A DNA stretch of 62,916 nt, counting the filler, from Reclinomonas americana ATCC 50394 (lineage: Eukaryota): assembly GCA_048213135.1 (NCBI GenBank). It is 17 parts of 17 records of this genome, joined end to end, with 100 filler letters (N's around TTAATTAATTAA, not from the genome) between each part and the next. Parts side by side here need not be neighbours in the genome. Positions count along the whole stretch, not along the records: positions 53,268 to 62,916 come from AFZH01022251.1; 16 more parts are not named here. One strand, written 5' to 3'. Numbering within the stretch: the first letter of the stretch is position 1; each line of letters starts with the position of its first letter. This document shows, one piece after another, positions 7,538 to 62,916 of this stretch. The translations under genes and the position numbers were made by a program. The notes under the pieces are model-generated. The model did not search any database. It saw nothing but the letters and a program-made list of their open reading frames with translations, and was not told where the DNA came from.

Positions 7538-7990
7538 TCACGCTCGCGATGAAACCACCTCGACGATGCGGCCATCGCGCAGATGGACCATGCGGTCGAG
7601 GCGCGAGAAGATTTTCTCGTCATGCGTCACGACGATGACCGCAGCGTCTCGTTCGATCGCGACCTGCTTCATCAGATCGATGACGATGGCGGCTCGTTCC
7701 GAATCGAGCGCTGCGGTCGGCTCGTCGGCGAGGATAATCCGCGGCTCGTTGGCGAGCGCGCGTGCGATCGCGACGCGCTGGGCCTCGCCGCCCGACAGCT
7801 TGGAGGGCAGCGCGTCGGCGCGGTGGTCGACCTGCAGATAGCCGAGCAGTTCCATGGCGCGGGCCTTGGCCCGCTCGGGGCTCTCGCCCATCAGGGCGCG
7901 AACGATCGCCACGTTCTCCCAGGCCGAGAGGAACGGCAGCAGGTTGTGGAACTGGAAGATGAACCCGATCGTCTCGAGCCTCAGCCGCCT
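7538..7990 (-). CDS. ABC transporter ATP-binding protein (LolD/MacB-like), C-terminal part
   Basis: LSGGEAQRVAIARAL, ILADEPTAALD, VVTHD. Confidence 0.9.
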   Translation of the reverse strand, partial: RRLRLETIGFIFQFHNLLPFLSAWENVAIVRALMGESPERAKARAMELLGYLQVDHRADALPSKLSGGEAQRVAIARALANEPRIILADEPTAALDSERAAIVIDLMKQVAIERDAAVIVVTHDEKIFSRLDRMVHLRDGRIVEVVSSRA

Positions 7991-8090
7991 NNNNNNNNNN
8001 NNNNNNNNNNNNNNNNNNNNNNNNNNNNNNNNNNTTAATTAATTAANNNNNNNNNNNNNNNNNNNNNNNNNNNNNNNNNNNNNNNNNNNN

Positions 8091-8355
8091 GCCTATCCCC
8101 TCGTGTGCCTTGGCACGCTTCCAGGTCCCTCGTGTCCCGCGGCGGGCGCGAGCTCTCGGCAAAAGGGCCCCTTTTGCCCGCTTCGACGACCCAGGCATCG
8201 GCCCCGGCACTGCGGACCAAGCCGAGCGCCTCGGCAACCAGCCCGCGATAGATGCCGACCATGCCCATGACGACGCCCAGCAGCAGGCTAAGGCCGACGC
8301 AGGTGAGGATGAACCGTCCAAGCCCATGCTGGACATCGCGCCAGGCGAGGTTCAT
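8091..8355 (-). CDS. ABC transporter permease (FtsX/MacB-like), N-terminal part
   Basis: MNLAWRDVQHGLGRFILT followed by a TM helix; coupled to the upstream adaptor gene. Confidence 0.8.
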
Positions 8356-9521
8356 CGGCGGCTCTCGGAGGCCACCACCTTGCGCCCGACCGTGAATCCG
8401 TCCGCGGGCACAGAAACCACCGCACTCGCGCCGGCGGGAAGGCCCCCGGCGATCAGCACGCGGCCGTCGAGCAACCGGTCTCCGAGAGCGACGAGACGCC
8501 GGTGGAGCTTGCCGTCCTCGACGGTCCAGATCATGCCCGCACGACTATCGAAGCCGCTCACGGCACGTAAGGGAACGAACAGACCCTCCGGGACGACCCG
8601 CTTGATGATCTCGATCTCGGCCTGCTCGCCGAGATAGCGGCCCTGATGTTCCGGCTCACAGGTCAGGCAGCGCACATAGACCCGGCGCTCCTCGGTGACG
8701 CGGTCGTTCTCCTGGTCGATCCGGACGATCTGCGCCTCGACGACGGTGTTCATCTCGGAGCGCAGCCGCACCAGCGCCTTCTGCCCGATCGCCAGACCAC
8801 CCGACACGGCCTCGTCGATGAAGGCGCGCACCCAGACCGAGTTCGGTTCGATCAGCGTGAAGACCACCTCACCGACACCGGCGACAGCGCCGGCCTCCTT
8901 CAGACGCGACAGGATGCGCGCGCGAAAGGGCGCAATGAGCCGGTGCTGGTCGAGCAGGACCTGTTCGATGGTCAGCGCGGCGGCGACGTCGTCACGGGCC
9001 GCTTCGGCCACGCGGACCTCCGCTTTGGCAACGGCGAGATCGGCCTGCGCGAGCGTCTCGTTGGTCTGGGCTTCGTCGGCCTGCTCGCGCGAGACGCTGC
9101 CGCGATCGACGAGCGACTGGCGGCGCTGGTTAACCAGCACTCGTTGCTGGAGGTTGGCCTCCGACCGCTGCAACAGCGCCTGCGCCTTGGCCAGAGCCGC
9201 CTGCACCTGGAGCTTCGCCACTTCCGCCTTGGCGACGCGGGCGCGCTGCGAGCTGTCCTCGAGGGTGGCGAGCACCGTGCCTGCCGGGACGATCTCGCCC
9301 TGGTCGGCGGCGAGCTTCACGATCCTGCCCGCAACCTGGAAACCGATCCGGGACAGCACCTGCGCCTCGACGCTGCCCAGCCCGAAGACACGGATTTCGA
9401 CATCGCGCTCGACCCGCGCGACGTCGACGGTGACGGGGCTCAACTTGCGGACATAGAGAATGCCGGCCATCGCCATCGCGACGAGGAGCAGAACGGACGG
9501 CAGCGCGAGGCGCTTGGACAT
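8352..9521 (-). CDS. Efflux periplasmic adaptor (membrane fusion protein)
   Basis: N-terminal TM, GLGSVEA, GRIVKLAADQGEIV, coiled coil, LIAPF. Confidence 0.9.
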   Translation of the reverse strand: MSKRLALPSVLLLVAMAMAGILYVRKLSPVTVDVARVERDVEIRVFGLGSVEAQVLSRIGFQVAGRIVKLAADQGEIVPAGTVLATLEDSSQRARVAKAEVAKLQVQAALAKAQALLQRSEANLQQRVLVNQRRQSLVDRGSVSREQADEAQTNETLAQADLAVAKAEVRVAEAARDDVAAALTIEQVLLDQHRLIAPFRARILSRLKEAGAVAGVGEVVFTLIEPNSVWVRAFIDEAVSGGLAIGQKALVRLRSEMNTVVEAQIVRIDQENDRVTEERRVYVRCLTCEPEHQGRYLGEQAEIEIIKRVVPEGLFVPLRAVSGFDSRAGMIWTVEDGKLHRRLVALGDRLLDGRVLIAGGLPAGASAVVSVPADGFTVGRKVVASESRR

Positions 9522-51267: not shown

Positions 51268-52487
51268 TCAAGTCGGCTGGTCCATGAATTCCACGCCCAG
51301 CTCCTTTTGCCGCCGCCAGCGTACTTTCACCTGCCGCCTGTGAGCTTGGTGAGGCAGCATCAGCTCGAACTCCTCCGGAGCCACCAGGCTGCTGTTGATC
51401 CGCAGTCGTGCACCGGTCGATGAGACATCAAGAACCGTGCAATCGATTGTTGCGTTGAGGTGCGGGAGGATGAGCTTGGCGCGCTTGTTGACGCGGGATC
51501 GTTCGCCGAGGCGACGGTTCACTTTGCGACCGCGCCCGCGGGCAAATGAATGCTGCAAGGGTACGCCATAGGTATCCGCATCGGCGATATGGTAGCGGAC
51601 TCCTCGTGCGATCGCGTTTTCCAGGGATCTGTCGGCGCATTCGATTGCCAGAAGCGCTTCCTGTGCAATGCCGGAATCGCAGGCACCGATGATGCTTTCA
51701 ATGCGGAAATCCAGGTCGCTCAGCCGCACTGCGAAGCTCAGCTGGTTCGAGATCTGGCCAATCGCCATCTCCAACGCAGCGGCTCCCGACATCGGGATTA
51801 GCAAAGCTACAAAACTCGCATCTGGCCGTCGGCAAAAACAGCCAACCCCCTGGAGCGCCACATTCAGGCGCTTCGCGAATTCGCGGGAGAGCTCCTCGGC
51901 TGTTTGGCGCCCGAATTTAGCGGCGAAGTAGCCAAGCTCCGTGATTTGAATTGCCAGGATACCAATGCCATGGCCGGCGTTTGCCCGCGCCTCGTCGAGC
52001 TTGCGAACCAGCTTTTCCGGGGACAGCAAGTTCATTGGCAGCTGCCCAGCCGCGATGGACTCGTCGTGCGCGTGTGAGCCGGCGAGCGGACCGCGATCAA
52101 ACGCCGTTCTCAGTCGCTCGATCGCCTGGACGAGGTCGTCGGCGCAGGCTTCCGTCATCGTGACGCAGTCGCGTGCGCCAAGACGGAAGGCCTGGATGAC
52201 CGCATCCTGACGTTTTTCCGGCGCCACGAATATGACCGGAGCGCGCCCCGATACGCGGTCGACGACGTTGCCGAGCAGTGGCAACCCCTCATCGAGGCCG
52301 GTGTCCGAGCAGAGCACGCACTCGACGCGATTGCGGCTGACCAAGTGGTCGAGTTCGTCGAGGTTGCCGGCGGCGGACACCATGCAGGCGCTTCGCGCTC
52401 TGAGCTGGGCGGCGAGTTCCTCGCCTTGCGCACCATCACCCCAGAAGGCGGCGATGACCCCGATTTCCGATGTCGCCTGCCCCTCCA
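51268..52487 (-). CDS. Degenerate REC - degenerate GGDEF - PilZ protein
   Basis: AFRLGARDCV (REC-like); KFG..A..L..FA..L and SIIG (GGDEF fold without the GGDEF motif); RRLGER and DVSSTG (PilZ). Confidence 0.7.
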
Positions 52488-52548
52488 TTCCCAACCCCAC
52501 GAGATAGGTGTCGTTGGTTCAGCCAGCGTGAAATCGCTGAGCGCGTCG

Positions 52549-53267: not shown

Positions 53268-53449
53268 GCGAGCGCAGCGTCGTCTCGGTGGCAAACCTGA
53301 CCCGGGCCGATGCCGCGGAGTTCCTTGCCATCGCGCCTCGCGCCGGCGTCAGGACGACGACGCATGTCTATCGGCTGGATCAGGCGAACGAAGCCCTGGC
53401 CGATCTGAGAGCCGGGCGCTTCCAGGGCGCGGCGGTGCTGGTACCCTAG
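53268..53449 (+). CDS. Zn-dependent alcohol dehydrogenase, C-terminal end
   Basis: SVANLTRAD..EFL...ANEALADLRAGRFQGAAVLVP. Confidence 0.85.
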
Positions 53450-53507
53450 CGCTTCGCAAGCCTGGTCCGCGCGCAGGGCCTGCTGGACGCCGCCAACGGA
53501 GAGGGTC

Positions 53508-53978
53508 ATGGGCACGCTCAGCGCCGGCATTCTGATGTACCGGCGCCGGGACGGGAGCATTCAGGTCCTGCTGGTGCACCCCGGCGGGCCGTTCTGGCGG
53601 CGGCGCGATCTCGGGGCCTGGTCCATCCCCAAGGGCGAACCTGCTCCGGGCGAGACGAACGAAGCGGCCGCGCGGCGTGAGTTCGGCGAGGAGCTGGGGA
53701 CTGTTCCCGCAGGCCCACTCATCCCGCTCGGCACCATCCGGCAGCGCGGCGGCACGACCGTCGAAGCCTTTGCCGTTGAAGGCGAACTCGACGTCGCGGG
53801 ATTCCGCTGCACCAGCCGGTTCGAGATCGAATGGCCACCACGCAGCGGACGCCTACAGTCCTTTCCGGAGGTTGACCAGGCGCTCTGGTGGTCTCTCCCC
53901 GAGGCGCGTGAACGGATACTGCCTGGGCAATGTCCGCTGCTCGACCGGCTCCAGGCGCTCTGCGAAAGCACGAGCTGA
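53508..53978 (+). CDS. NUDIX hydrolase
   Basis: LVHPGGP.W, WSIPKGE..AARREFGEELG, FPEVD. Confidence 0.92.
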   Translation: MGTLSAGILMYRRRDGSIQVLLVHPGGPFWRRRDLGAWSIPKGEPAPGETNEAAARREFGEELGTVPAGPLIPLGTIRQRGGTTVEAFAVEGELDVAGFRCTSRFEIEWPPRSGRLQSFPEVDQALWWSLPEARERILPGQCPLLDRLQALCESTS

Positions 53979-54267
53979 GCCAGGGCGGCTGTTTTCATCA
54001 CCGCGGCGGCCGGTGGGACCGGTCGATTGTCCTACTGCCGAATATGATCTGCCTGATCAGGCTCAGGAACCCCCTGACATGCATCCAGATCGAGATGCGC
54101 GGCTCGCGGTCGAGCTCCCCGGCCAAGTCCCCGCACCGGCGTGCGTCGACCGTTCGGCGATGCTGGCGAAACCTGGCTTTCCAACGATCGAGAGATGAAC
54201 GGGACATGGCGAATGGCCGACGCAGACAATCGACATCGATAGATTGGAGCATCCCCGGCGCACGTCT

Positions 54268-54281
54268 TTGATATCGATCAA
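54268..54281. promoter_or_regulatory. Perfect-consensus FNR box
   Basis: TTGAT-ATCG-ATCAA. Confidence 0.8.
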
Positions 54282-54340
54282 TCCGGATGGGGTTCTCGCC
54301 GAGAAGCAGACAAGCTGGTGGCGCCGGGTGCGCGCCGGGA

Positions 54341-55144
54341 TCAACCGACCCTTTCGTCCGCGAAGATCGTTCGGCCACGTTCTCCCGCGAAATAGGCCTG
54401 GAGCCAGGCGTCGTCATGTGACAGCAGATCGCTGAGCGTTCCGGTCGCGATGACCTTGCCATGTGCGATCGCAGCGATCCTGTCGCAGGTGGCATGGAGG
54501 CTGCTGAGATCGTGGGTGATCATCATCACCGTCAGGTCCAGGCTGTCTCTGAGCGTCAGGATAAGCTCATCGAAGGCATCGGCGGCGATCGGGTCGAGAC
54601 CGGATGTCGGCTCGTCGAGAAAAAGGATCTCGGGATCGAGCGCGAGCGCGCGGGCCAATGCAGCCCGCTTGGTCATGCCGCCCGAGAGTTCCCATGGGTA
54701 TTTGCCTGCGGCATCGAGGGGAAGGCCGACCAGCTCGATCTTCAGCATGGCCATCTCTGCCATGAGGCGCGGCGACAGCTCTAGGCTTTCCCGCATTGGA
54801 AACTGGATATTGTCGGCAACGGTCAGAGAGGAGAACAGGGCGCCGTGCTGGAACATGACGCCGAAGCGCTGCTCCATCGTCCGGCGTTCTCTGGCTGAGA
54901 GCGTATCGACATCCTGCCCGAAGATCTCGATCACGCCGCCGCGCTTTGGCACGAGCCCGAGGATCGTCCGAGCCAGGACCGACTTGCCCGAGCCTGATGC
55001 GCCGATGACGCCGAGGATCTCGCCGCGCGCGATCTCGATATCGAGGCGATCCAGGATCGTCTTGTCGCCAAATCCGACCTCGAGCCCGCGCACGCTGACT
55101 ACGATCTCACGCTGTCGCTGTCCGCCCTGCGTTGTCACCGTCAT
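54341..55144 (-). CDS. MlaF/Mkl-type ABC ATP-binding protein
   Basis: GASGSGKS, FQHGALFSSLTV, LSGGMTKRAALARAL, DEPTSGLDP. Confidence 0.9.
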   Translation of the reverse strand: MTVTTQGGQRQREIVVSVRGLEVGFGDKTILDRLDIEIARGEILGVIGASGSGKSVLARTILGLVPKRGGVIEIFGQDVDTLSARERRTMEQRFGVMFQHGALFSSLTVADNIQFPMRESLELSPRLMAEMAMLKIELVGLPLDAAGKYPWELSGGMTKRAALARALALDPEILFLDEPTSGLDPIAADAFDELILTLRDSLDLTVMMITHDLSSLHATCDRIAAIAHGKVIATGTLSDLLSHDDAWLQAYFAGERGRTIFADERVG

Positions 55145-55584
55145 ATGCCCGTCAGCAGGCGCTCGATCTCCTGGATCGGGTGCTTGGTCAGATCCTTGTC
55201 GATCTCGGCAATGACGGTAGCATGCACGCCATCGTCCAGGCTCTCCCGGAGAGCGGCGAGCATCCGCGGCGGAGCCACCAACACGACACCGTGCGGGCGG
55301 CTGCGATAGAGGGTCCTGAACGCATCGACCGTCTCACGTGCGAATTGCGCCTCCGCCATCTCGTGCCAATCCGTCGCTTCGGCCGCACTGGTCGGGCCGA
55401 AGGCGTTCTGGATGCGCCCGGGACGGTCCGCACCCTGCTTCGCGGTCAATGGATTTGCGGGCGCCTGGATCGCTCGTTCGAGCCGCAGATTCGGAAAGGC
55501 CGCATCGCCCGCATTATGCAGGAACAGCGCCTTGCGGGCGTCGCAGACGAGAATCCAGGCCTTGGGTGGAATGCGCAGTTCCAT
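55141..55584 (-). CDS. Host attachment protein family (AtsE/baeRF12-like)
   Basis: WILVCDARKALFL.N.G, DRPGR, APPRML..LR, KDLTK. Confidence 0.85.
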   Translation of the reverse strand: MELRIPPKAWILVCDARKALFLHNAGDAAFPNLRLERAIQAPANPLTAKQGADRPGRIQNAFGPTSAAEATDWHEMAEAQFARETVDAFRTLYRSRPHGVVLVAPPRMLAALRESLDDGVHATVIAEIDKDLTKHPIQEIERLLTGI

Positions 55585-55653
55585 GGCGTCGATCTCCACA
55601 GCATGCGGCAGCGCCGCCCGTTGCGATGATTTCCGATCGATCGACGGCGTTCA

Positions 55654-55667
55654 TTGATCGAGCGCAA
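55654..55667. promoter_or_regulatory. FNR/FixK box
   Basis: TTGAT-CGAG-CGCAA in a divergent promoter. Confidence 0.75.
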
Positions 55668-55741
55668 AGCCCGGCCGAATGGTCGGTGACCTCATGCAGC
55701 AGCGGGCGTTGCCCTGGTTCGCGGGCATGGGGAGGACTGCG

Positions 55742-56035
55742 ATGCTTAACGGAGAAGGAGTACCGCGCGCTGGCGTACGCCTATCGTTTCATGGCGCGGC
55801 TCAGGCCGTGACCGGATCGTGCTACGCGCTCGAGACCAGCGATGCCCACATCCTCGTCGATTGCGGCATGTTCCAGGGCTCGAAAACGGAGAAGGAGCTG
55901 AACTACAGGCCGTTCCCGTTCAACCCCGCATCGCTCGATGCGGTGCTGTTGACGCACGCCCATATCGATCACAGCGGACTGCTGCCCAAGCTCGCATCTC
56001 GTCCGTCAGGCGCCGGAAACGCTGGTGCGCTTTGA
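55742..56035 (+). pseudogene. Truncated MBL-fold/beta-CASP RNase-like gene
   Basis: [34 protein letters not shown], then an abrupt loss of similarity and a stop. Confidence 0.85.
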
Positions 56036-56267
56036 GGCCAGCAGGCGCCTGATCGCCCTTGGCGGCACGATGCCCGACGCCAAGGCCGCACCGCGTCCAA
56101 AAATGAGCGATCCTGGACACCTCGCCCCTCTTGCGAAGGCATGGCACTGTCGGCATGCCGGCATGATCTAACGCGCAAGTCGGGTCGCAGGCGGACATTC
56201 GCCGAACCCCGGTGGCTGGATTGCAATGCGGGACATGAGCCTCTGGCTTCCAGCGTAAAGCGTGAAG

Positions 56268-57254
56268 TCAGCCCAGGTGCCGGAGCCAGTTCGCCAGGCT
56301 GCCGTCGTCCGCGTCGAGCGAAGGCGACAGGCGCAGATGCGCGGCATCGCGCGGCGCGATACCGAACTGTGCCTTGAAAGCGCGCGAGAAGGCATCGTCG
56401 CTCGAAAAGCCGAACTGACGCGCAATCTTCCCGATGCCGCCCCTTCCGCGCGTTGAAGCATTGAGCGCCAGACGCGCTCGCGCCAGACGGCGCTGGCGGA
56501 TGTAGTCAGAGACACCGCCGATCGGGGCGAAGAGACGGTAGAGCGCCGAACGCGACAGGCCGAATGCGCTGCAAAGCATCCTGGTATCCAGGGCGGGATC
56601 GCCGATCCGGCGATCGATGAAGCGACAGATCATCACCATGGTCGCCGTCAGCGTTGCCGGAGCCTCACTCTCGCGCATCAACGCTGGAGAGAGACAGGCC
56701 GACAGCAGTTGTGCGCTGGCCTTGGCGATGTCGGGGGCTGCTGTCGCTTCGAGCGTGGGCGCTGCCTTCAGCAGGCTGCGCAGATGGTCACCTGCCAGCG
56801 AGCCGAGCGGGCTCGCCCCGGACAGGACGGTGCCATGCACCCGGTCCAGACTGCCGACATCAAGCGCGAGTAGGCTGCGCGGCAACACCAGGTTGACCGC
56901 CCGCATGTCGGAGGCATGCGAGCGCACGGGACGGGACAGGTCGAAAATCACGACGTCGCCCGGGCCGGCGTGGACCTCCTCCCCATCCAGGTCGAGCGTC
57001 GTATGACCCGCCTCATAGCGCTGGATCAGCAGGTGGTCGACGCCGACCGCGCCGATCAGGCTTTCCGAGCGTTCGTAATGCTGGGCGCTCGTCGACACCT
57101 GCCCGACCAGTGCCGTGCTCAGGTGGTGGCGATCGAGCTCGGCATGGAAACCGGCATCCCAGTCGCCCGCAAGCGGCCGAACGTCGAAGATCGGCGCAAT
57201 GGTCTCGCGCCAGCTCCCGAAACGCTGCCGCGCGTGATCGCCTTCGCTGCCCAT
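56268..57254 (-). CDS. AraC-family regulator (FeaR-like N-domain)
   Basis: SRSALYRLF..GGVSDYIRQRRL, FGFSS..AFSRAFKAQFGIAP. Confidence 0.92.
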   Translation of the reverse strand: MGSEGDHARQRFGSWRETIAPIFDVRPLAGDWDAGFHAELDRHHLSTALVGQVSTSAQHYERSESLIGAVGVDHLLIQRYEAGHTTLDLDGEEVHAGPGDVVIFDLSRPVRSHASDMRAVNLVLPRSLLALDVGSLDRVHGTVLSGASPLGSLAGDHLRSLLKAAPTLEATAAPDIAKASAQLLSACLSPALMRESEAPATLTATMVMICRFIDRRIGDPALDTRMLCSAFGLSRSALYRLFAPIGGVSDYIRQRRLARARLALNASTRGRGGIGKIARQFGFSSDDAFSRAFKAQFGIAPRDAAHLRLSPSLDADDGSLANWLRHLG

Positions 57255-57486
57255 GGCCCAGCCTGCCCACCCTCTCGCAGCGCCGCCCGTTACCAAGGCG
57301 TTCGCGACGTTTTCTAGACGAAAGAGAGCTGCGATAACGTAAATGGGCCGATGAGAGAGCACTGATACGTCGCCCCGGATGATTGGGACGCAGCGTCGCC
57401 TTTCCGCCGTCTCCCCGATTTTCGTTCCATGTTACGCGCCGAACGACCGGTCCACGCCTGCTGGACCACGTTGACGAGCCTTGCCT

Positions 57487-60400
57487 ATGCCGATTATCGC
57501 CGCGCGCCGCGCCGTTCTTCGCTGCCTCTGCGCGACCGTGGCGTCGCTTCTTGCCGCTCTCATGCCGGTTGTCGCTTCGGCATCGGATCGACCCGCGCTG
57601 CCGGACGCGTTTTCCGGCCTCCCGGTCCGCAATCTCCCGCGTGCCGCAACGCTCCCCGCGCCCGCGTATTTCGCGACACCCGAATACAACGCCAATTACG
57701 GCCTGGCGCAGATCAACGCCGCCGACGCCTATGCGCTTGGACTCAGCGGCAAGGGCGTACTGGTTGCGGTGGTCGACAGCGGCATCGACCTCACGCATCC
57801 CGAATTTGCCGGCCGGCTCTCGCCGCTGTCGCGCAATTTCGGCTTCGACCTGCCCGGTCCGAACGACATTCTCGATCGGGACAGGTTCTCGCACGGAACC
57901 CATGTGGCCGGGACGATCGCCGCCGCGAAAGACGGCCGCGGCATGCATGGCGTCGCCTACAATGCCGAAATCCTGGCCTTGCGCGCGATCACCCCGAGCG
58001 GCGGGGACACGGCTGCCGCCATCCGCTATGCGAGCGAGCACGGCGCGAAGGTTCTGAACGGCAGCTATGGCCCCGTCTATCCTGCCCTGACCCTGCCGGA
58101 CGGCAGCCCGAACCCGGACTACAGCCTCGTCCCGATCCAGCCCTACCATGTCAACGGCACCTTTGCCGAGGTCTCGGCCATTCGTCAGGCGGGCGCTGCG
58201 GATATGGTCATGGTCTTCGCCGCCGGCAATGAGCGCGAGGACCAGCCGGTGATCGCGCGCAATCCGACGGGAGCAGCCTTCTATCCTGCGATCCGGCCGG
58301 AGAACGCCGGCAAGAATCTCTATGTCTTCCTCGACGGCAATGGCGACCCGGTCAGTTCGAGCAGCCTCAACTATTCGGACCTCCAACCCTACACGATCGC
58401 CGTCGTCGCGGTGGATCGTGATCGCAAGATCGCGTCGTTCAGCAACTATTGCGGCATTGCCGCCGCCTGGTGCCTTGCCGCGCCCGGTGTCGGGATTCTC
58501 TCGAGCGTGACCCCGGCCAATGGCAGCTCCCCGACGGAGCCATACAATCTGTCCAGCGGCACCTCGATGGCCGCTCCGCATGTGGCAGGCGCCGCCGCCC
58601 TCGTTCGCGAGGCGTTTCCGTTCATGACCGCGCCGCAGGTGGTCCAGTCCATCCTCACCACGGCGACCGATCTCGGATCGCCCGAGATCTATGGCTGGGG
58701 CCTGCTCAATGTCGGCAAGGCGGTGCGCGGCCCCGGCCAGTTCGTGCAGACCTTCGATGTCGACACCAAGGGCTATTCGGCGACTTTCGGCAACGACATC
58801 ACCGGCGCGGGCGGGCTGGTCAAGCGCGGCGATGGCCGGCTCGAACTGAGCGGTCGCAACACTTATGCGGGAGGTACCTCCGTCGTTGGGGGAACGCTTG
58901 CGCTGAACGGCTCCGTTGCGTCGACGGTCTCGATCGGCCAGCAGGGAACCTTGCGCGGCACGGGCTCGATCGAGGCGGGCCTGTTCAGCGCCGGCACGGT
59001 CATGCCCGGCAACTCCCCCGGCACGCTGTTCGTTAAGGGGCCGGTGAGATTCGGCGGCACAAGCCGCTTCGTCCTCGACATCGACGGAACCGGCACGGGC
59101 AACGGCGCAGGCAACTATTCGCGTCTCGTCGCGCAAACCGCTTCGGGGCATGTTACCGTCGATGGGCGGATCGGCCCCGTGCTGCGCGGCATCGCCGGCG
59201 ATGCGAGCAACAGCTTTGCGCCCGTGACCGGAACCGCCTTCCAGGTTCTGGTGGCCGAGGGAGGCCTGAGCGGCAGCTTCACCGGGCTGGACCAGCCGGC
59301 CAATGGCTTGCCTGCCAACGCCCGCTTCGACGCCCTTTATGGCGCAACGGGGCTGTCGCTGATCGTGACGCCCAGTTCCTATGCCGCGCTCGCGGGCCTG
59401 AACGGCAATGCTTCCTCGGTCGCACGGGCGCTCGATTCCGTGCGGCCAGCCGCCGGGACGCGCCCCGATGCCGCGCGGCAGGAGGTGTTCGACGCACTCT
59501 ACACGTCCGCACCAGGCACGCTACCCGGTGGGCTGAGCTCACTGTCCGGGCAGAACTATGCCGATGCGCGCATGGCGATGATGAACGCTCAGCGGACGGT
59601 CAGCGCGGCTCTCGATCAGCGCCTGACAGCCGGTTGGCCCTCCCGATACGCTCAGCTCACCGGGCTGGGAGCGGCGAGCTATGCCGGCCTTGGCAGTGCT
59701 TCGGTCGAGGCCGGGCGAGTGCAGCCGGCCAGCAACGGCGCGCTCTGGGGGCAGGCCCTCTACGGTTTCGGGCGGACGGGAGGAGACACGAACAGAACGG
59801 GTTCGAGCTTCGGCCTCGCCGGCGCGATGATCGGTGCGGAAACCGCCTTGCGGACCGGTACGATCGGCGCCGCCGTGGGATACACGCGCTCGAACGGAGA
59901 CCCGAAGGCCAATGCGGCCGGCCGCGTCGCGCTCGACAGCTACAGTCTGGCGACCTATGGCCGCGCCGATTTCGGTGCCCTGACGCTACGCGGCTCGATC
60001 GGCGCCAACTATGGCAAGACGGACGTTCGCAGAACGATCCAGCTCGGCAATGCCCAGCGGATCGCGCATGGCGAGGCTGACAGCTACGGCTTCTTCGGCA
60101 ATGCCATCGCCGGATATCGCCTCGCTTCCGTCGCCGGCCTCGATCTGTCGCCTGAAGCCGGAATCAGCCTGCTTCATTCCCGACAGGATGGTCTGACCGA
60201 AACACAGGCCGGAGCCTTCGCGCTGACCCTGCGTGGTCAAAACTCGACCTCCGCGCGTTCCCTGGCAGGCGCCCGGCTGTCGACGCCCCTGGCCGGCGAC
60301 GCCAAGCTGCGTCTCGACCTCAAGGCCTACTGGTCCCATGAGTTCGCCGACAACGTCGCGGTCCTGCAGGCGAGCCTGCTGGGTGCGGGCATCGTGACGC

Positions 60401-60555
60401 GGAGCCCGGGCGCGGCGCGGGACGGAGCGGTGATCGGTGCAAGCCTGTCGGGCTTCGTCACCCCGCAGATCGAGGTGTCCGGTTCCTATGACGGCGACCT
60501 GCGGCTGGGCGCCACGACCCACCGCTTCTCTTTCCAGGCGATGACCCGCTGGTAG
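57487..60555 (+). CDS. Subtilisin (S8) autotransporter
   Basis: Catalytic residues VVDSG, HGTHVAG, FAAGN, GTSMAAPHV; passenger repeat GGLVKRG.G.L.LSG.NTY.GGT; C-terminal barrel ending in W. Confidence 0.95.
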   Translation: MPIIAARRAVLRCLCATVASLLAALMPVVASASDRPALPDAFSGLPVRNLPRAATLPAPAYFATPEYNANYGLAQINAADAYALGLSGKGVLVAVVDSGIDLTHPEFAGRLSPLSRNFGFDLPGPNDILDRDRFSHGTHVAGTIAAAKDGRGMHGVAYNAEILALRAITPSGGDTAAAIRYASEHGAKVLNGSYGPVYPALTLPDGSPNPDYSLVPIQPYHVNGTFAEVSAIRQAGAADMVMVFAAGNEREDQPVIARNPTGAAFYPAIRPENAGKNLYVFLDGNGDPVSSSSLNYSDLQPYTIAVVAVDRDRKIASFSNYCGIAAAWCLAAPGVGILSSVTPANGSSPTEPYNLSSGTSMAAPHVAGAAALVREAFPFMTAPQVVQSILTTATDLGSPEIYGWGLLNVGKAVRGPGQFVQTFDVDTKGYSATFGNDITGAGGLVKRGDGRLELSGRNTYAGGTSVVGGTLALNGSVASTVSIGQQGTLRGTGSIEAGLFSAGTVMPGNSPGTLFVKGPVRFGGTSRFVLDIDGTGTGNGAGNYSRLVAQTASGHVTVDGRIGPVLRGIAGDASNSFAPVTGTAFQVLVAEGGLSGSFTGLDQPANGLPANARFDALYGATGLSLIVTPSSYAALAGLNGNASSVARALDSVRPAAGTRPDAARQEVFDALYTSAPGTLPGGLSSLSGQNYADARMAMMNAQRTVSAALDQRLTAGWPSRYAQLTGLGAASYAGLGSASVEAGRVQPASNGALWGQALYGFGRTGGDTNRTGSSFGLAGAMIGAETALRTGTIGAAVGYTRSNGDPKANAAGRVALDSYSLATYGRADFGALTLRGSIGANYGKTDVRRTIQLGNAQRIAHGEADSYGFFGNAIAGYRLASVAGLDLSPEAGISLLHSRQDGLTETQAGAFALTLRGQNSTSARSLAGARLSTPLAGDAKLRLDLKAYWSHEFADNVAVLQASLLGAGIVTRSPGAARDGAVIGASLSGFVTPQIEVSGSYDGDLRLGATTHRFSFQAMTRW

Positions 60556-60572
60556 GCCGACCGGAGATGCCC

Positions 60573-61538
60573 ATGCCGTCCTCCTTCGCACGACGCCTGC
60601 TGGGCGCCGGTCTGCCCGCTCTCCTCCTCGCCTGCATCCTCGGGGCCATGCTCTGGCACCAGCATCGCAGTGTCGAGCAGGTCGCGTCTCGCAGCCGCGA
60701 GGAGCAAATGCGGCTCGTCGGGACCTTGCTCGGATCGAGCTTCGATCAGGCTGCCAAGTCCTCGCTCTCGCTCGCCGAATCCTTCGCGCGCAATGCCGAG
60801 ATTCGCGACGCACTCGCGGCCGAGGATCGCACTCGGCTACAGGCCCTGTCGCAGGATGCCTACCAGTATCTCAGCAGGCAAGCGAGCGTGCAGATCTTCG
60901 GCTTTCACAACAGGGAGCTGCGCTACCTGCTGCGCATGCATCGCCCCGATCAGCACGGCGACGACATATCCGCCTTCCGGGCGATGATCGTGGCCGCCAA
61001 CCGGCTGCGGCGTGCCCAGACCGGGATCGAGATCGGTATCGCCGGCATCGGCATCCGCGGTGTCGCGCTGGTCCAGCGTGGTTCGGAGTTCTTAGGGACG
61101 ATGGAAGTAGGGCTCGACATCCGGCCTTTGATCGAGCTCGTCAAGACGGCGACCAACGGCGAGATCGCGGTGGTCGCCGCAGCCTCGCTTACCGGCGTCG
61201 CGCTCGACCCGAAATTGCCTGCGGTCGGCGGCCTCAGCATCATGGCATCGACCGACGACCAGCTTTTCCTGAAGCTGTTGCGCGCCCAGGGAACGCAGCC
61301 GCAGCGGGATGTCGAGTTCGGTCGCAGGCGGATCGACGAACGCAGCTACGCGTTCATGAGCCAGCCATTGGTCGACTTCTCCGGCAAGCTGGTCGGAACC
61401 GTCCTGATGCTCAAGGAAGAGACCTGGTCCGACTGGCGCCGCTTGAGCACCGAGCTATCGGTCATCGCGCTTTGCGGGGGCATTCTCGCGTTTGTCGGCT
61501 TTCTCGTGTTGTCGCGTGCGCGGCGAGCGGGTTCATGA
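60573..61538 (+). CDS. Stand-alone membrane-anchored dCache_3-type sensor
   Basis: TM, then LLRMHRPDQHGDDISAFR..VAAN..GIEIG..GIRG, then TM and a short basic tail. SD spacing favours the ATG at 60573. Confidence 0.85.
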   Translation: MPSSFARRLLGAGLPALLLACILGAMLWHQHRSVEQVASRSREEQMRLVGTLLGSSFDQAAKSSLSLAESFARNAEIRDALAAEDRTRLQALSQDAYQYLSRQASVQIFGFHNRELRYLLRMHRPDQHGDDISAFRAMIVAANRLRRAQTGIEIGIAGIGIRGVALVQRGSEFLGTMEVGLDIRPLIELVKTATNGEIAVVAAASLTGVALDPKLPAVGGLSIMASTDDQLFLKLLRAQGTQPQRDVEFGRRRIDERSYAFMSQPLVDFSGKLVGTVLMLKEETWSDWRRLSTELSVIALCGGILAFVGFLVLSRARRAGS

Positions 61539-62605
61539 TCGGCCGCCTGCTTCTCCTCTCCCTGATCGTCCTCGGCCTCGCTCAAGGCGCATCGGGCGAG
61601 GAAAGAACGGGCAGTAGCAAGGCCACGCTGCCGGAGGCCTTCGGCCTGCCCGTACGCGTCCATATTGCGCTACGCGTGCTCAACGTCCTGGAGATCAAGG
61701 AAGTCTCAGGGCAAGGGCGCTTGCATCTGGAACTGACCCAGCGCTGGCAGGATCCGCGCCTGGCCTTCGACGCTGTCGCGCGCGGCCTTGCCCGGGAGGA
61801 TCGGGTGGGCGAGGAGGCCGACGACTATCTGAAGACCATCTGGTCGCCTGGCCTCGCGCTCGACAACCAGATCGGAGACAAGGACGCGCGCATCGTCGCC
61901 CTTTCAGTGCATGCCGATGGCGAGGTGGTGGTGATCGAGCGCTTCGAAAGCGATTTTCGCTTTCGAATGAACATGGATGCCTTTCCCTTCGACCGACAGA
62001 ACCTGACGATCGGGCTCTCGCTGCCCCGTTACGCGCAGCAGGAGGCGATCGTTCTGACGACGGAGGCCGACCGCCCCTTCTCAGGCGTCGAGGGTACGCT
62101 CTCGGTCGTCGACTGGCGGCCTGTAGGCCTGCGCTTCAGCAACGATCTCGCGATTGGTTGGAACGCGCGCTCCTATTCGCGCCTCAACGCGACCGTGACG
62201 ATCGCGCGCTATGCGGAGCGCTATCATCTGCGCATCTTCGTTCCCATCATCGCGGTCCTCGCCGTCTCGCTGTTCGTGCTGTGGTCTCCAGGTTTGAAGG
62301 AGCAGGACAAGGGCGGCTTGATCTTCTCGTCATTGCTGGCCCTGGCCGCGATCAGCTTCACCTTCGAATCCTCTTTTCCGGGCTCGATCTCGCTCAATAC
62401 CCCCGTCGCCGAGATGATATCGCTCGGATACCTCTACCTCGTCGCCGTTCTGATGTTCGAGATCGCCTTGTCAGTCGCGATCGCTCACCCTCACTTCCGC
62501 TTGCGCGACCAGGCTGCGGATTTGCGCTGGCACCTGCGCTGGGCGGTACCGGCGATCATGTTGACCATCTGCATCGGGGCAGCGGTCCGCGCCCTGCCCG
62601 GATAG
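61535..62605 (+). CDS. Prokaryotic pentameric ligand-gated ion channel (ELIC/GLIC-like)
   Basis: Signal peptide, PVRV, WQDPRL, IWSP, MDAFPFDRQ (Pro-loop), YSRL...R, four TM helices, M1 proline, M2-M3 FP. Confidence 0.9.
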   Translation: MIGRLLLLSLIVLGLAQGASGEERTGSSKATLPEAFGLPVRVHIALRVLNVLEIKEVSGQGRLHLELTQRWQDPRLAFDAVARGLAREDRVGEEADDYLKTIWSPGLALDNQIGDKDARIVALSVHADGEVVVIERFESDFRFRMNMDAFPFDRQNLTIGLSLPRYAQQEAIVLTTEADRPFSGVEGTLSVVDWRPVGLRFSNDLAIGWNARSYSRLNATVTIARYAERYHLRIFVPIIAVLAVSLFVLWSPGLKEQDKGGLIFSSLLALAAISFTFESSFPGSISLNTPVAEMISLGYLYLVAVLMFEIALSVAIAHPHFRLRDQAADLRWHLRWAVPAIMLTICIGAAVRALPG

Positions 62606-62916
62606 CTTCACCATTCGGCTTGGGGCCTCGCTCGAGCAGCATCCCGCGATATTCAGGCTATCGGAAGCCACCCGGATGGAGATGCGCCTGCACGGTGAGA
62701 GGCCGCATTCGAGCGACCGGTAATGCGAGGCGAATACGCCGATCGAGAACTCCCTGCGTCGGTTCCGGGTCATCGCGGGATTGACCAGCGAGGTCTGCTT
62801 TCGGGCGGACCTCGAATTTCTGCTTATAGCGCGAGTCGCCCGTTGTCAGACTCCTTCGGCCGCGGCGGTGCTTGCCGCCAGGCAGCCATCGGTCGTTCTG
62901 ACATTGCCGGAGCAAG

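Follow-up and report, generated by a model that had tools for sequence, protein, structure and literature searches.

The locus described here lies in a stretch of 62,916 nucleotides (nt), filler included, filed under Reclinomonas americana ATCC 50394 (GenBank assembly GCA_048213135.1); the whole stretch is called the window below, and its positions 53,268 to 62,916 come from record AFZH01022251.1. Between 56268 and 62605 a divergent AraC-family regulator gene faces three tightly packed plus-strand genes, for a surface protease, a stand-alone Cache sensor and a subunit of a pentameric ligand-gated ion channel (pLGIC). A first-pass annotation had proposed these as a new four-gene signalling module. 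Open reading frames (ORFs) and domain searches confirm the genes, their strands and the divergent regulator as it described them, and the four domains it had named were all recovered by Pfam hidden Markov model search (Peptidase_S8 3.4e-55, Autotransporter 2.3e-45, dCache_3 2.2e-23, Neur_chan_LBD 1.1e-16). The genes are as follows, with the transmembrane (TM) segments of sensor and channel placed by hydropathy.

56268 to 57362, minus strand: FeaR-like AraC-family regulator with AraC_binding_2 and HTH_18 domains, the ORF being open to a GTG at 57362
57481 to 60555, plus strand: subtilisin (S8) autotransporter of 1024 residues, with signal peptide, S8 domain with D/H/S motifs, PATR repeat and C-terminal beta-barrel
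60567 to 61538, plus strand: stand-alone dCache_3 sensor of 323 residues, with TM1 at about 7-31, a periplasmic dCache_3 domain, TM2 at about 293-319 and a tail of about 4 residues
61535 to 62605, plus strand: GLIC-like pLGIC subunit of 356 residues, with signal peptide 1-20, extracellular domain and membrane helices M1-M4

The sensor ATG at 60567 follows the protease TAG stop (60553 to 60555) after 11 nt, or after 17 nt if a second ATG at 60573, with a GGAG 6 nt upstream, is the start, and the gap is thus under 20 nt as first reported. The channel ATG in turn overlaps the sensor stop codon (61536 to 61538) by 4 nt, in the ATGA at 61535 to 61538 that had also been noticed. In its AlphaFold2 model (predicted local distance difference test, pLDDT, 93.1; predicted template modelling score, pTM, 0.85) the sensor has a long stalk helix, two PAS-like modules in tandem and a C-terminal helix, which with the flanking TM helices is the make-up of a dCache_3 sensor. 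Foldseek places nearest to it the sensor domains of DctB (8e-9), LuxQ, McpH, vpHK1S-Z8, Mlp24 and PctA, of the double-PDC type, and DctB, LuxQ, McpH, PctA and Mlp24 share with it both the double PDC/Cache fold and the long N-terminal stalk helix. In contrast to these proteins, which run on into kinase or chemoreceptor outputs, the chain of the sensor stops about 4 residues past TM2 with no output domain, and so it is not a receptor of the dCache_3-HAMP-output type. The ligands of the solved folds nearest to the model are C4-dicarboxylates, amino acids and urate, and in the case of LuxQ a partner protein; LuxQ (PDB title 2hj9) is a precedent for such a domain acting via a periplasmic protein partner.

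Both TM helices are kept in every sensor orthologue aligned, and by orthologue alignment and model the conserved residues (R123, D133, R138, E155, R164 and E180) lie mostly in the membrane-distal module. Rhizobiaceae and Reyranella orthologues retain a tail of 50-70 residues past TM2; a HAMP remnant in such long-tailed orthologues was considered and set aside, a Pfam match being returned for one of eight only, at E 0.09. A profile search with the sensor against 1.84 billion representatives gave 7799 relatives, the best 25 or so (above 260 bits) all being 279-383 residues long; many stand-alone dCache_3 proteins of 350-400 residues score lower, at 160-215 bits. About 75 long proteins occur among the best 150 of the 7799, and dCache_3 was found in all 32 of them that were checked. 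In 28 of the 32 it is combined with HAMP and with GAF, MCPsignal, SpoIIE or PAS-kinase as output, and the other architectures comprise two with MCPsignal and no detected HAMP, one with HAMP only and one with a 4HB_MCP module; in the long relative P0154 dCache_3 stands alone, in two stretches. From the output-domain architectures of these long relatives the stand-alone sensor looks like a receptor that has lost its output.

That the last ORF has the pLGIC fold, as the first pass had supposed, is borne out by a full-length match of a 37-orthologue channel profile to GLIC (1.9e-25) and by an AlphaFold2 model (pLDDT 85.3) that matches GLIC with E 1.2e-21 and a template modelling score of 0.85 (normalised to target). 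The model also matches GABA-A, glycine receptor (GlyR), ELIC, sTeLIC and DeCLIC chains, 9eva_D being the DeCLIC chain, and the NCBIfam family LIC (TIGR00860) is hit at 1.1e-22. An extracellular beta-sandwich is indicated by Neur_chan_LBD, the GLIC profile match and the model, and the four helices M1-M4 fall at 229-256, 260-278, 290-321 and 336-356 by hydropathy and at 228-250, 256-280, 290-317 and 324-353 in the model. By sequence as well as by fold the best solved relative is GLIC, the proton-gated Gloeobacter channel, which shares the FPFD Pro-loop and the four TM helices, although the identity is about 21% and a partner gene was not found described for it. The Pro-loop residues F150, P151, F152 and D153 and the R225 before M1 are invariant in 37 channel sequences, and this Pro-loop motif and pre-M1 arginine we take to be features that define the pLGIC family. 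They are in part drawn from Tasneem, Iyer, Jakobsson and Aravind (2004; PMC549065). At the loop C position, in the loop that joins strands 194-207 and 213-225, a GWNAR motif is invariant or nearly so and could be the channel's own ligand site or a docking site for the sensor. Orthologues hardly vary in the M2 and M2-M3 segment ESSFPGSISLNTP, and the GLIC alignment puts D258 and the nearby E256 at the inner mouth of M2. By the same alignment, and with the prime numbering of M2, L268 presumably takes the 9' gate position and S265 the 6' position. Elsewhere in the same order P0128 is a fusion of SBP_bac_5 and Neur_chan_memb of 788 residues, and other pLGIC types occur in frames of 785-834 residues (G326, G299 and G066).

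Comparison across genomes finds the sensor and channel genes together almost throughout. A channel-profile scan with one genome per species yielded 80 loci, with which the four window proteins were compared by tblastn; they come from Bosea, Chelatococcus, Bradyrhizobium, Rhodopseudomonas, Rhodoplanes, Pseudolabrys, Phreatobacter, Reyranella, many Rhizobiaceae and a few Burkholderiales. The sensor gene lies directly upstream of the channel gene, on the same strand, in 78 of the 80, and of the two others one (L080) sits at a contig end with no upstream DNA and one (L049) is a decayed remnant. In a sample of 301 genomes of the order the 11 sensor matches of at least 190 bits and the 11 channel matches of at least 160 bits are the same adjacent pairs; weaker sensor matches there number 47, nearly all within frames of 600-800 residues, and the 18 weaker channel matches belong to pLGICs of other types. 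Sensor and channel are separate ORFs in all 78 loci, and in this they are not pLGICs with a fused N-terminal sensor. In 56 of the 78 the sensor stop and the channel start have 4 or 1 nt in common, a count that depends on the analyst's choice of start codons, and the largest gap among the rest is 134 nt. Pfam annotation of 15 neighbourhoods found nothing besides the pair conserved. The conserved pair fits a sensor that may act with the channel in trans, and in most lineages the pair appears to work without the protease, whose gene is present in nine of the 80 loci (L009-L017); of the co-occurrence expected in the first pass the part that joined channel and Cache protein holds, and the part that joined channel and protease holds for those nine loci only.

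One genome sequence (G114:C1) holds two sensor-channel pairs, at about 4227024-4229206 and about 4388077-4390217, of which the latter has diverged further (214 and 363 bits). In part of the Rhizobiaceae clade a gene for a CorA-type Mg2+ transporter lies 3' of the pair (L073, L075 and, there after a PhoX gene, L055).

The first-pass annotation had regarded the composition as uncharacterised, and this claim to novelty needs correcting for the pair, as a Rhodopseudomonas ligand-gated ion channel of the acetylcholine receptor type (ART-LGIC) was predicted by Tasneem et al. in 2004 (PMC549065) to share an operon with a Cache gene that stands alone. That paper likens the operon to the fusions of MCP-N and Cache with pLGICs of other prokaryotes (Methanosarcina, Cytophaga and Microbulbifer), suggests that both proteins cooperate, and proposes that the associated domains serve preliminary ligand concentration or sensing. 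The operon of Rhodopseudomonas palustris holds the same gene pair: the Rhodopseudomonas loci L042-L046 are orthologous to the pair in the window (channel 52-57% and sensor 39-42% identity) and have the same order and coupling. The differences are that the 2004 account concerns one bacterium and is a prediction only and that it carries no protease, no AraC gene, no remark on loss of output and no survey. No experimental work on this Cache-pLGIC pair was found in the literature, subscription-only papers lying outside that search. The robust unit is the Cache plus pLGIC pair, already predicted, and the four-gene arrangement is a lineage-specific Bosea block.

Other systems offer comparisons of varying closeness. 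The fused pLGICs (MCP-N with Cache, type I periplasmic binding protein (PBP-I), and DeCLIC with its N-terminal domain that modulates gating) likewise carry an extra periplasmic sensor module on a GLIC-type core, whereas the module in the window is a separate dCache_3 polypeptide with two TM helices of its own. The animal alpha2-delta proteins, which bear Cache domains and act on voltage-gated calcium channels, are also separate proteins that tune an ion channel, although the channel class is unrelated and the likeness is one of analogy only. The same is so for the TM auxiliary proteins on GABA-A receptors (PDB title 9fap), which are separate channel-tuning proteins of other organisms.

Upstream of the pair in the window is the protease, which with its S8 Asp/His/Ser motifs and C-terminal barrel, seen by Pfam and by alignment to the passenger domain 8e7f, is a type Va subtilase autotransporter. 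That passenger domain is its closest solved relative (1.1e-57), with the catalytic motifs aligning, and Pfam finds PATR at 4e-9. NCBIfam EprS (NF051851) is matched at 5e-89 with 299.5 bits against a cutoff of 1700, and so the protein is not an EprS equivalog. EprS and the 8e7f subtilase autotransporters have the same S8 domain, PATR/beta-helix stalk and beta-barrel, but sensor or channel genes downstream were not found described in their literature. A role in anti-phage defence was considered and rejected, PADLOC returning nothing but a generic subtilase match. The regulator ORF (AraC_binding_2 2.8e-15, HTH_18 6e-13) has the domain make-up of FeaR and matches NCBIfam FeaR (NF007243) at 2.7e-34 with 119 bits, below the curated cutoff of 199, and is therefore not a FeaR equivalog. 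Its start is likely the ATG at 57254, because orthologue alignments begin only at residue 25-37. The remaining features of the locus are these:

55994 to 62832, no strand: DNA shared with other Bosea genomes, within the limits of similarity given below
57255 to 57480, no strand: AraC/protease divergent intergenic region, conserved among block-bearing Bosea loci
57449 to 57467: inverted repeat GGTCCA-N7-TGGACC about 20 nt before the protease start, retained in block-bearing Bosea loci
62789 to 62814, plus strand: terminator-like hairpin with an 11-bp stem, 7 GC pairs and a T-rich tail, 185 nt past the channel stop
58599 to 58612 and 61940 to 61952: shorter, weak terminator-like sites from the consensus scan, inside the protease gene and inside the channel gene respectively

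Conservation of the intergenic region was judged from an alignment that took in six block loci and G015, and the inverted repeat could be an operator or a hairpin in the 5' untranslated region. The terminator calls come from a consensus scan only, which found 4 sites where shuffles gave 3.9; that scan returned none at the protease/sensor or sensor/channel junction.

The block comprises four genes over 6.3 kb, and its 11-nt protease-sensor spacer is identical in all nine block loci. In a quick tree of the channel, built from all 78 rows with L038 trimmed, these nine loci are one clade inside Bosea that otherwise have the pair only (Shimodaira-Hasegawa-like approximate likelihood ratio test, SH-aLRT, 95), and because they are nested in this way a single capture event is suggested to have joined AraC and protease genes to the pair. 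Flanks of 5 kb to either side were compared, each locus with every other. The block, from AraC stop to channel stop, is the sole DNA similarity of the window to L012-L014, L016 and L017, and likewise of L009 to L013, L016 and L017: the window resembles L012-L014 and L017 from 56266-56273 to 62603-62605, and L016 from 56182 to 62832. Block loci have at most 537-644 nt of flank in common, to be set against an internal control in which the shared flank is about 9 kb for pair-only Bosea and 2-10 kb for Rhodoplanes, Rhodopseudomonas and 19 Rhizobiaceae loci. By these comparisons the four genes appear to have been inherited and relocated together in one Bosea clade.

The left end of the shared DNA can be placed more closely. 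The window and its nearest genome (G001) have the same locus, the window being collinear with L009 on G001:C43, and a 3.8-kb insertion with MgtC/DUF4010 and BON genes lies in G001 exactly at window position 55994/5. In a second genome (G368) one contig keeps synteny with the left flank of the window as far as 55996, at 91-94% identity, and the block is found mid-contig on another. Against both genomes the breakpoint thus falls at 55994-55996, and 55994/5 is, as read from these alignments, a recombination breakpoint abutting the block. When G368 was searched for the empty site, its similarity to G001 and to the window was seen to end near 55996 and not to pick up again with the DNA beyond the block in G001; no terminal repeats were found at the block ends.

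Several smaller observations belong to these surroundings. An ORF of 118 residues (55679-56035) matches only the first third of a metallo-beta-lactamase fold and ends at the breakpoint 55994/5, and further upstream of the block, both on the minus strand, are genes for a GGDEF-PilZ protein (51268-52500) and for a Host_attach/baeRF family 12 protein (55141-55599). An integrase-family ORF lies 1.5 kb downstream at one locus. The remnant L049 is a second site in Bosea sp. TAF32 (about 7727-8558) where autotransporter residues 847-939 are joined directly to channel residues 171-356, the Cache gene being absent; the fused ORF is named an autotransporter domain protein in one source (P0104), and the same genome holds the intact block L013.

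Regulator and protease genes occur outside the block as well. Orthologues of the two (57% and 56% identity) lie in G015, again divergent from each other, with flanks unlike those of the window, and there no channel match was found genome-wide and no sensor or channel within 16.5 kb around the protease; AraC and protease genes appear on this showing to be a unit of their own. AraC matches at E 1e-5 or better occur at 20 of the 80 loci. Three Rhizobiaceae genomes have their best match genome-wide to the regulator directly upstream of the pair and on the same strand (31-34% identity, E about 1e-42 to 1e-45), while a Rhizobium genome that has the pair but no AraC neighbour gave no regulator match genome-wide; in G001 the single match is the regulator itself. 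In a Phreatobacter genome (G059; L102, 3470-8140) the sole match is 1.6 kb upstream of the pair and divergent, and the gene between codes for a patatin-like phospholipase of 400 residues with an N-terminal signal-like segment, found in L064 too. In Rhodoplanes the regulator lies 3-6 kb from the pair with purC between and is not the best match in the genome. In several lineages the regulator probably accompanies the pair more than chance would explain, though most loci lack it. The four-gene module as first proposed therefore survives in part: its genes stay together in one Bosea clade and a FeaR-like AraC recurs elsewhere, but the arrangement is not general, as the rarity of the protease and the case of G015 make plain.

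The reading that we favour, and which we think probable though by no means secure, is that the core is a two-gene receptor-channel unit with the sensor as accessory subunit of the channel, in the Bosea clade placed behind a protease gene that faces AraC. The sensor would be a bitopic, ligand-sensing subunit with a periplasmic dCache_3 domain, attached to a homopentameric channel, and the pair a split version of the pLGICs with N-terminally fused sensor domains. As the sensor has no cytoplasmic output a signal could leave it only sideways, and its one constant neighbour is the channel; ligand occupancy would be passed through the periplasmic domain or the two TM helices of the sensor to the gating machinery of the channel, which would then pass cations. 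We infer from this that the sensor may gate the channel directly. In the Bosea clade, because no native upstream region of the pair remains, transcription of the pair would start at the protease promoter or at one within the protease gene, which would likely place it under AraC.

Some results weigh against this two-gene reading or take away from what seems to favour it. No fusion of a sensor of this dCache_3 type to a pLGIC was found: searches for longer relatives of both proteins, by their nature weak evidence, gave only HAMP-type receptors and one fusion of SBP_bac_5 with a channel, and none of the 32 long sensor relatives has a channel (Neur_chan) domain. A start-type codon overlaps the sensor stop in 76 of the 78 loci, a count to which chance contributes where the stop is TGA, and the correlation of sensor with channel distances (r 0.94 over 666 pairs) is expected from shared descent alone. 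The channel is probably cation-conducting because of the acidic residues at the M2 inner mouth, an assignment in which the M2 numbering and the selectivity rule are applied to the GLIC alignment. Co-transcription of protease, sensor and channel genes would follow from their spacing. A polyA RNA-seq run (X1) has contigs with 100% identity over the whole region, all 7.4 kb, and record 6 spans the junction of protease and Cache genes and record 7 that of Cache and channel genes, but record 2 spans the divergent AraC/protease region and for that reason DNA carry-over in X1 is possible. This run is labelled as another organism, and therefore a Bosea strain or its DNA was present in that sample. A complex prediction with two channel copies (21-356) and the sensor, in which the analyst's alignments went unused, scored 0.00, under the threshold, and counts neither way.

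One alternative is the pathway first proposed for the window: an AraC-induced surface protease would free peptides or amino acids, the Cache protein would sense them and the channel would open. Here the discreteness of the block speaks in favour, with its conserved 11-nt spacer and as the only DNA common to the nine Bosea loci, as does the Phreatobacter patatin-like phospholipase, which holds the same slot between a divergent FeaR-like AraC gene and the pair; moreover PctA, Mlp24 and DctB, whose solved dCache domains resemble the sensor model, bind amino acids and carboxylates. Yet the protease is confined to nine of 80 loci in a single clade, G015 has AraC and protease with no channel match, and a hydrolase occupies this slot in just two cases. 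The protease gene is, furthermore, frameshift-split in L011 and L012 (G016) and lacks about 600 internal residues in L015, with sensor and channel intact in all three, breaks for which assembly error is possible because all three are metagenome bins. The complete pathway is on this evidence doubtful. It can be extended to a relocating cassette, in which a FeaR-like regulator would control a surface hydrolase whose products are read by the Cache sensor, with the cation channel then changing the membrane potential and the Phreatobacter patatin-like version as a second form; this we consider a rather long shot.

The Cache protein might instead have no part in gating, and be a scavenger of ligand for the channel's own site or a factor that assembles or stabilises the pentamer. 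The invariant GWNAR at the loop C position does suggest an orthosteric site in the channel itself, ligand concentration or sensing was what Tasneem et al. proposed (PMC549065), and tight translational coupling would suit an assembly partner. A soluble scavenger would, however, need no TM helices, and both are kept in every aligned orthologue, and conserved residues gathered mostly in the membrane-distal module fit a ligand-binding sensor better than a chaperone; a non-gating role of either kind is accordingly improbable in our estimate. That sensor and channel are mere co-expressed neighbours with no functional link is hardly credible, given a sensor gene upstream in all 78 testable loci, reciprocity of the strong matches (11 of 11) in an unbiased genome sample, and a pairing that spans several alphaproteobacterial families as well as some Burkholderiales, in many neighbourhoods.

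To our knowledge no prokaryotic pLGIC has an established physiological role. The literature found on these channels deals only with biophysical model channels. An obligate-looking partner gene in about 80 species makes an experiment on the channel with and without the sensor concrete, and in the Bosea block the regulator and the linked exported enzyme could hint at the condition that induces the genes and perhaps at the ligand. The finding would be a bacterial case of a Cache protein as a separate auxiliary subunit of a channel, something otherwise known from the animal alpha2-delta proteins, and the relocating cassette, if true, would supply a physiological role and a natural source of ligand for a prokaryotic pLGIC.

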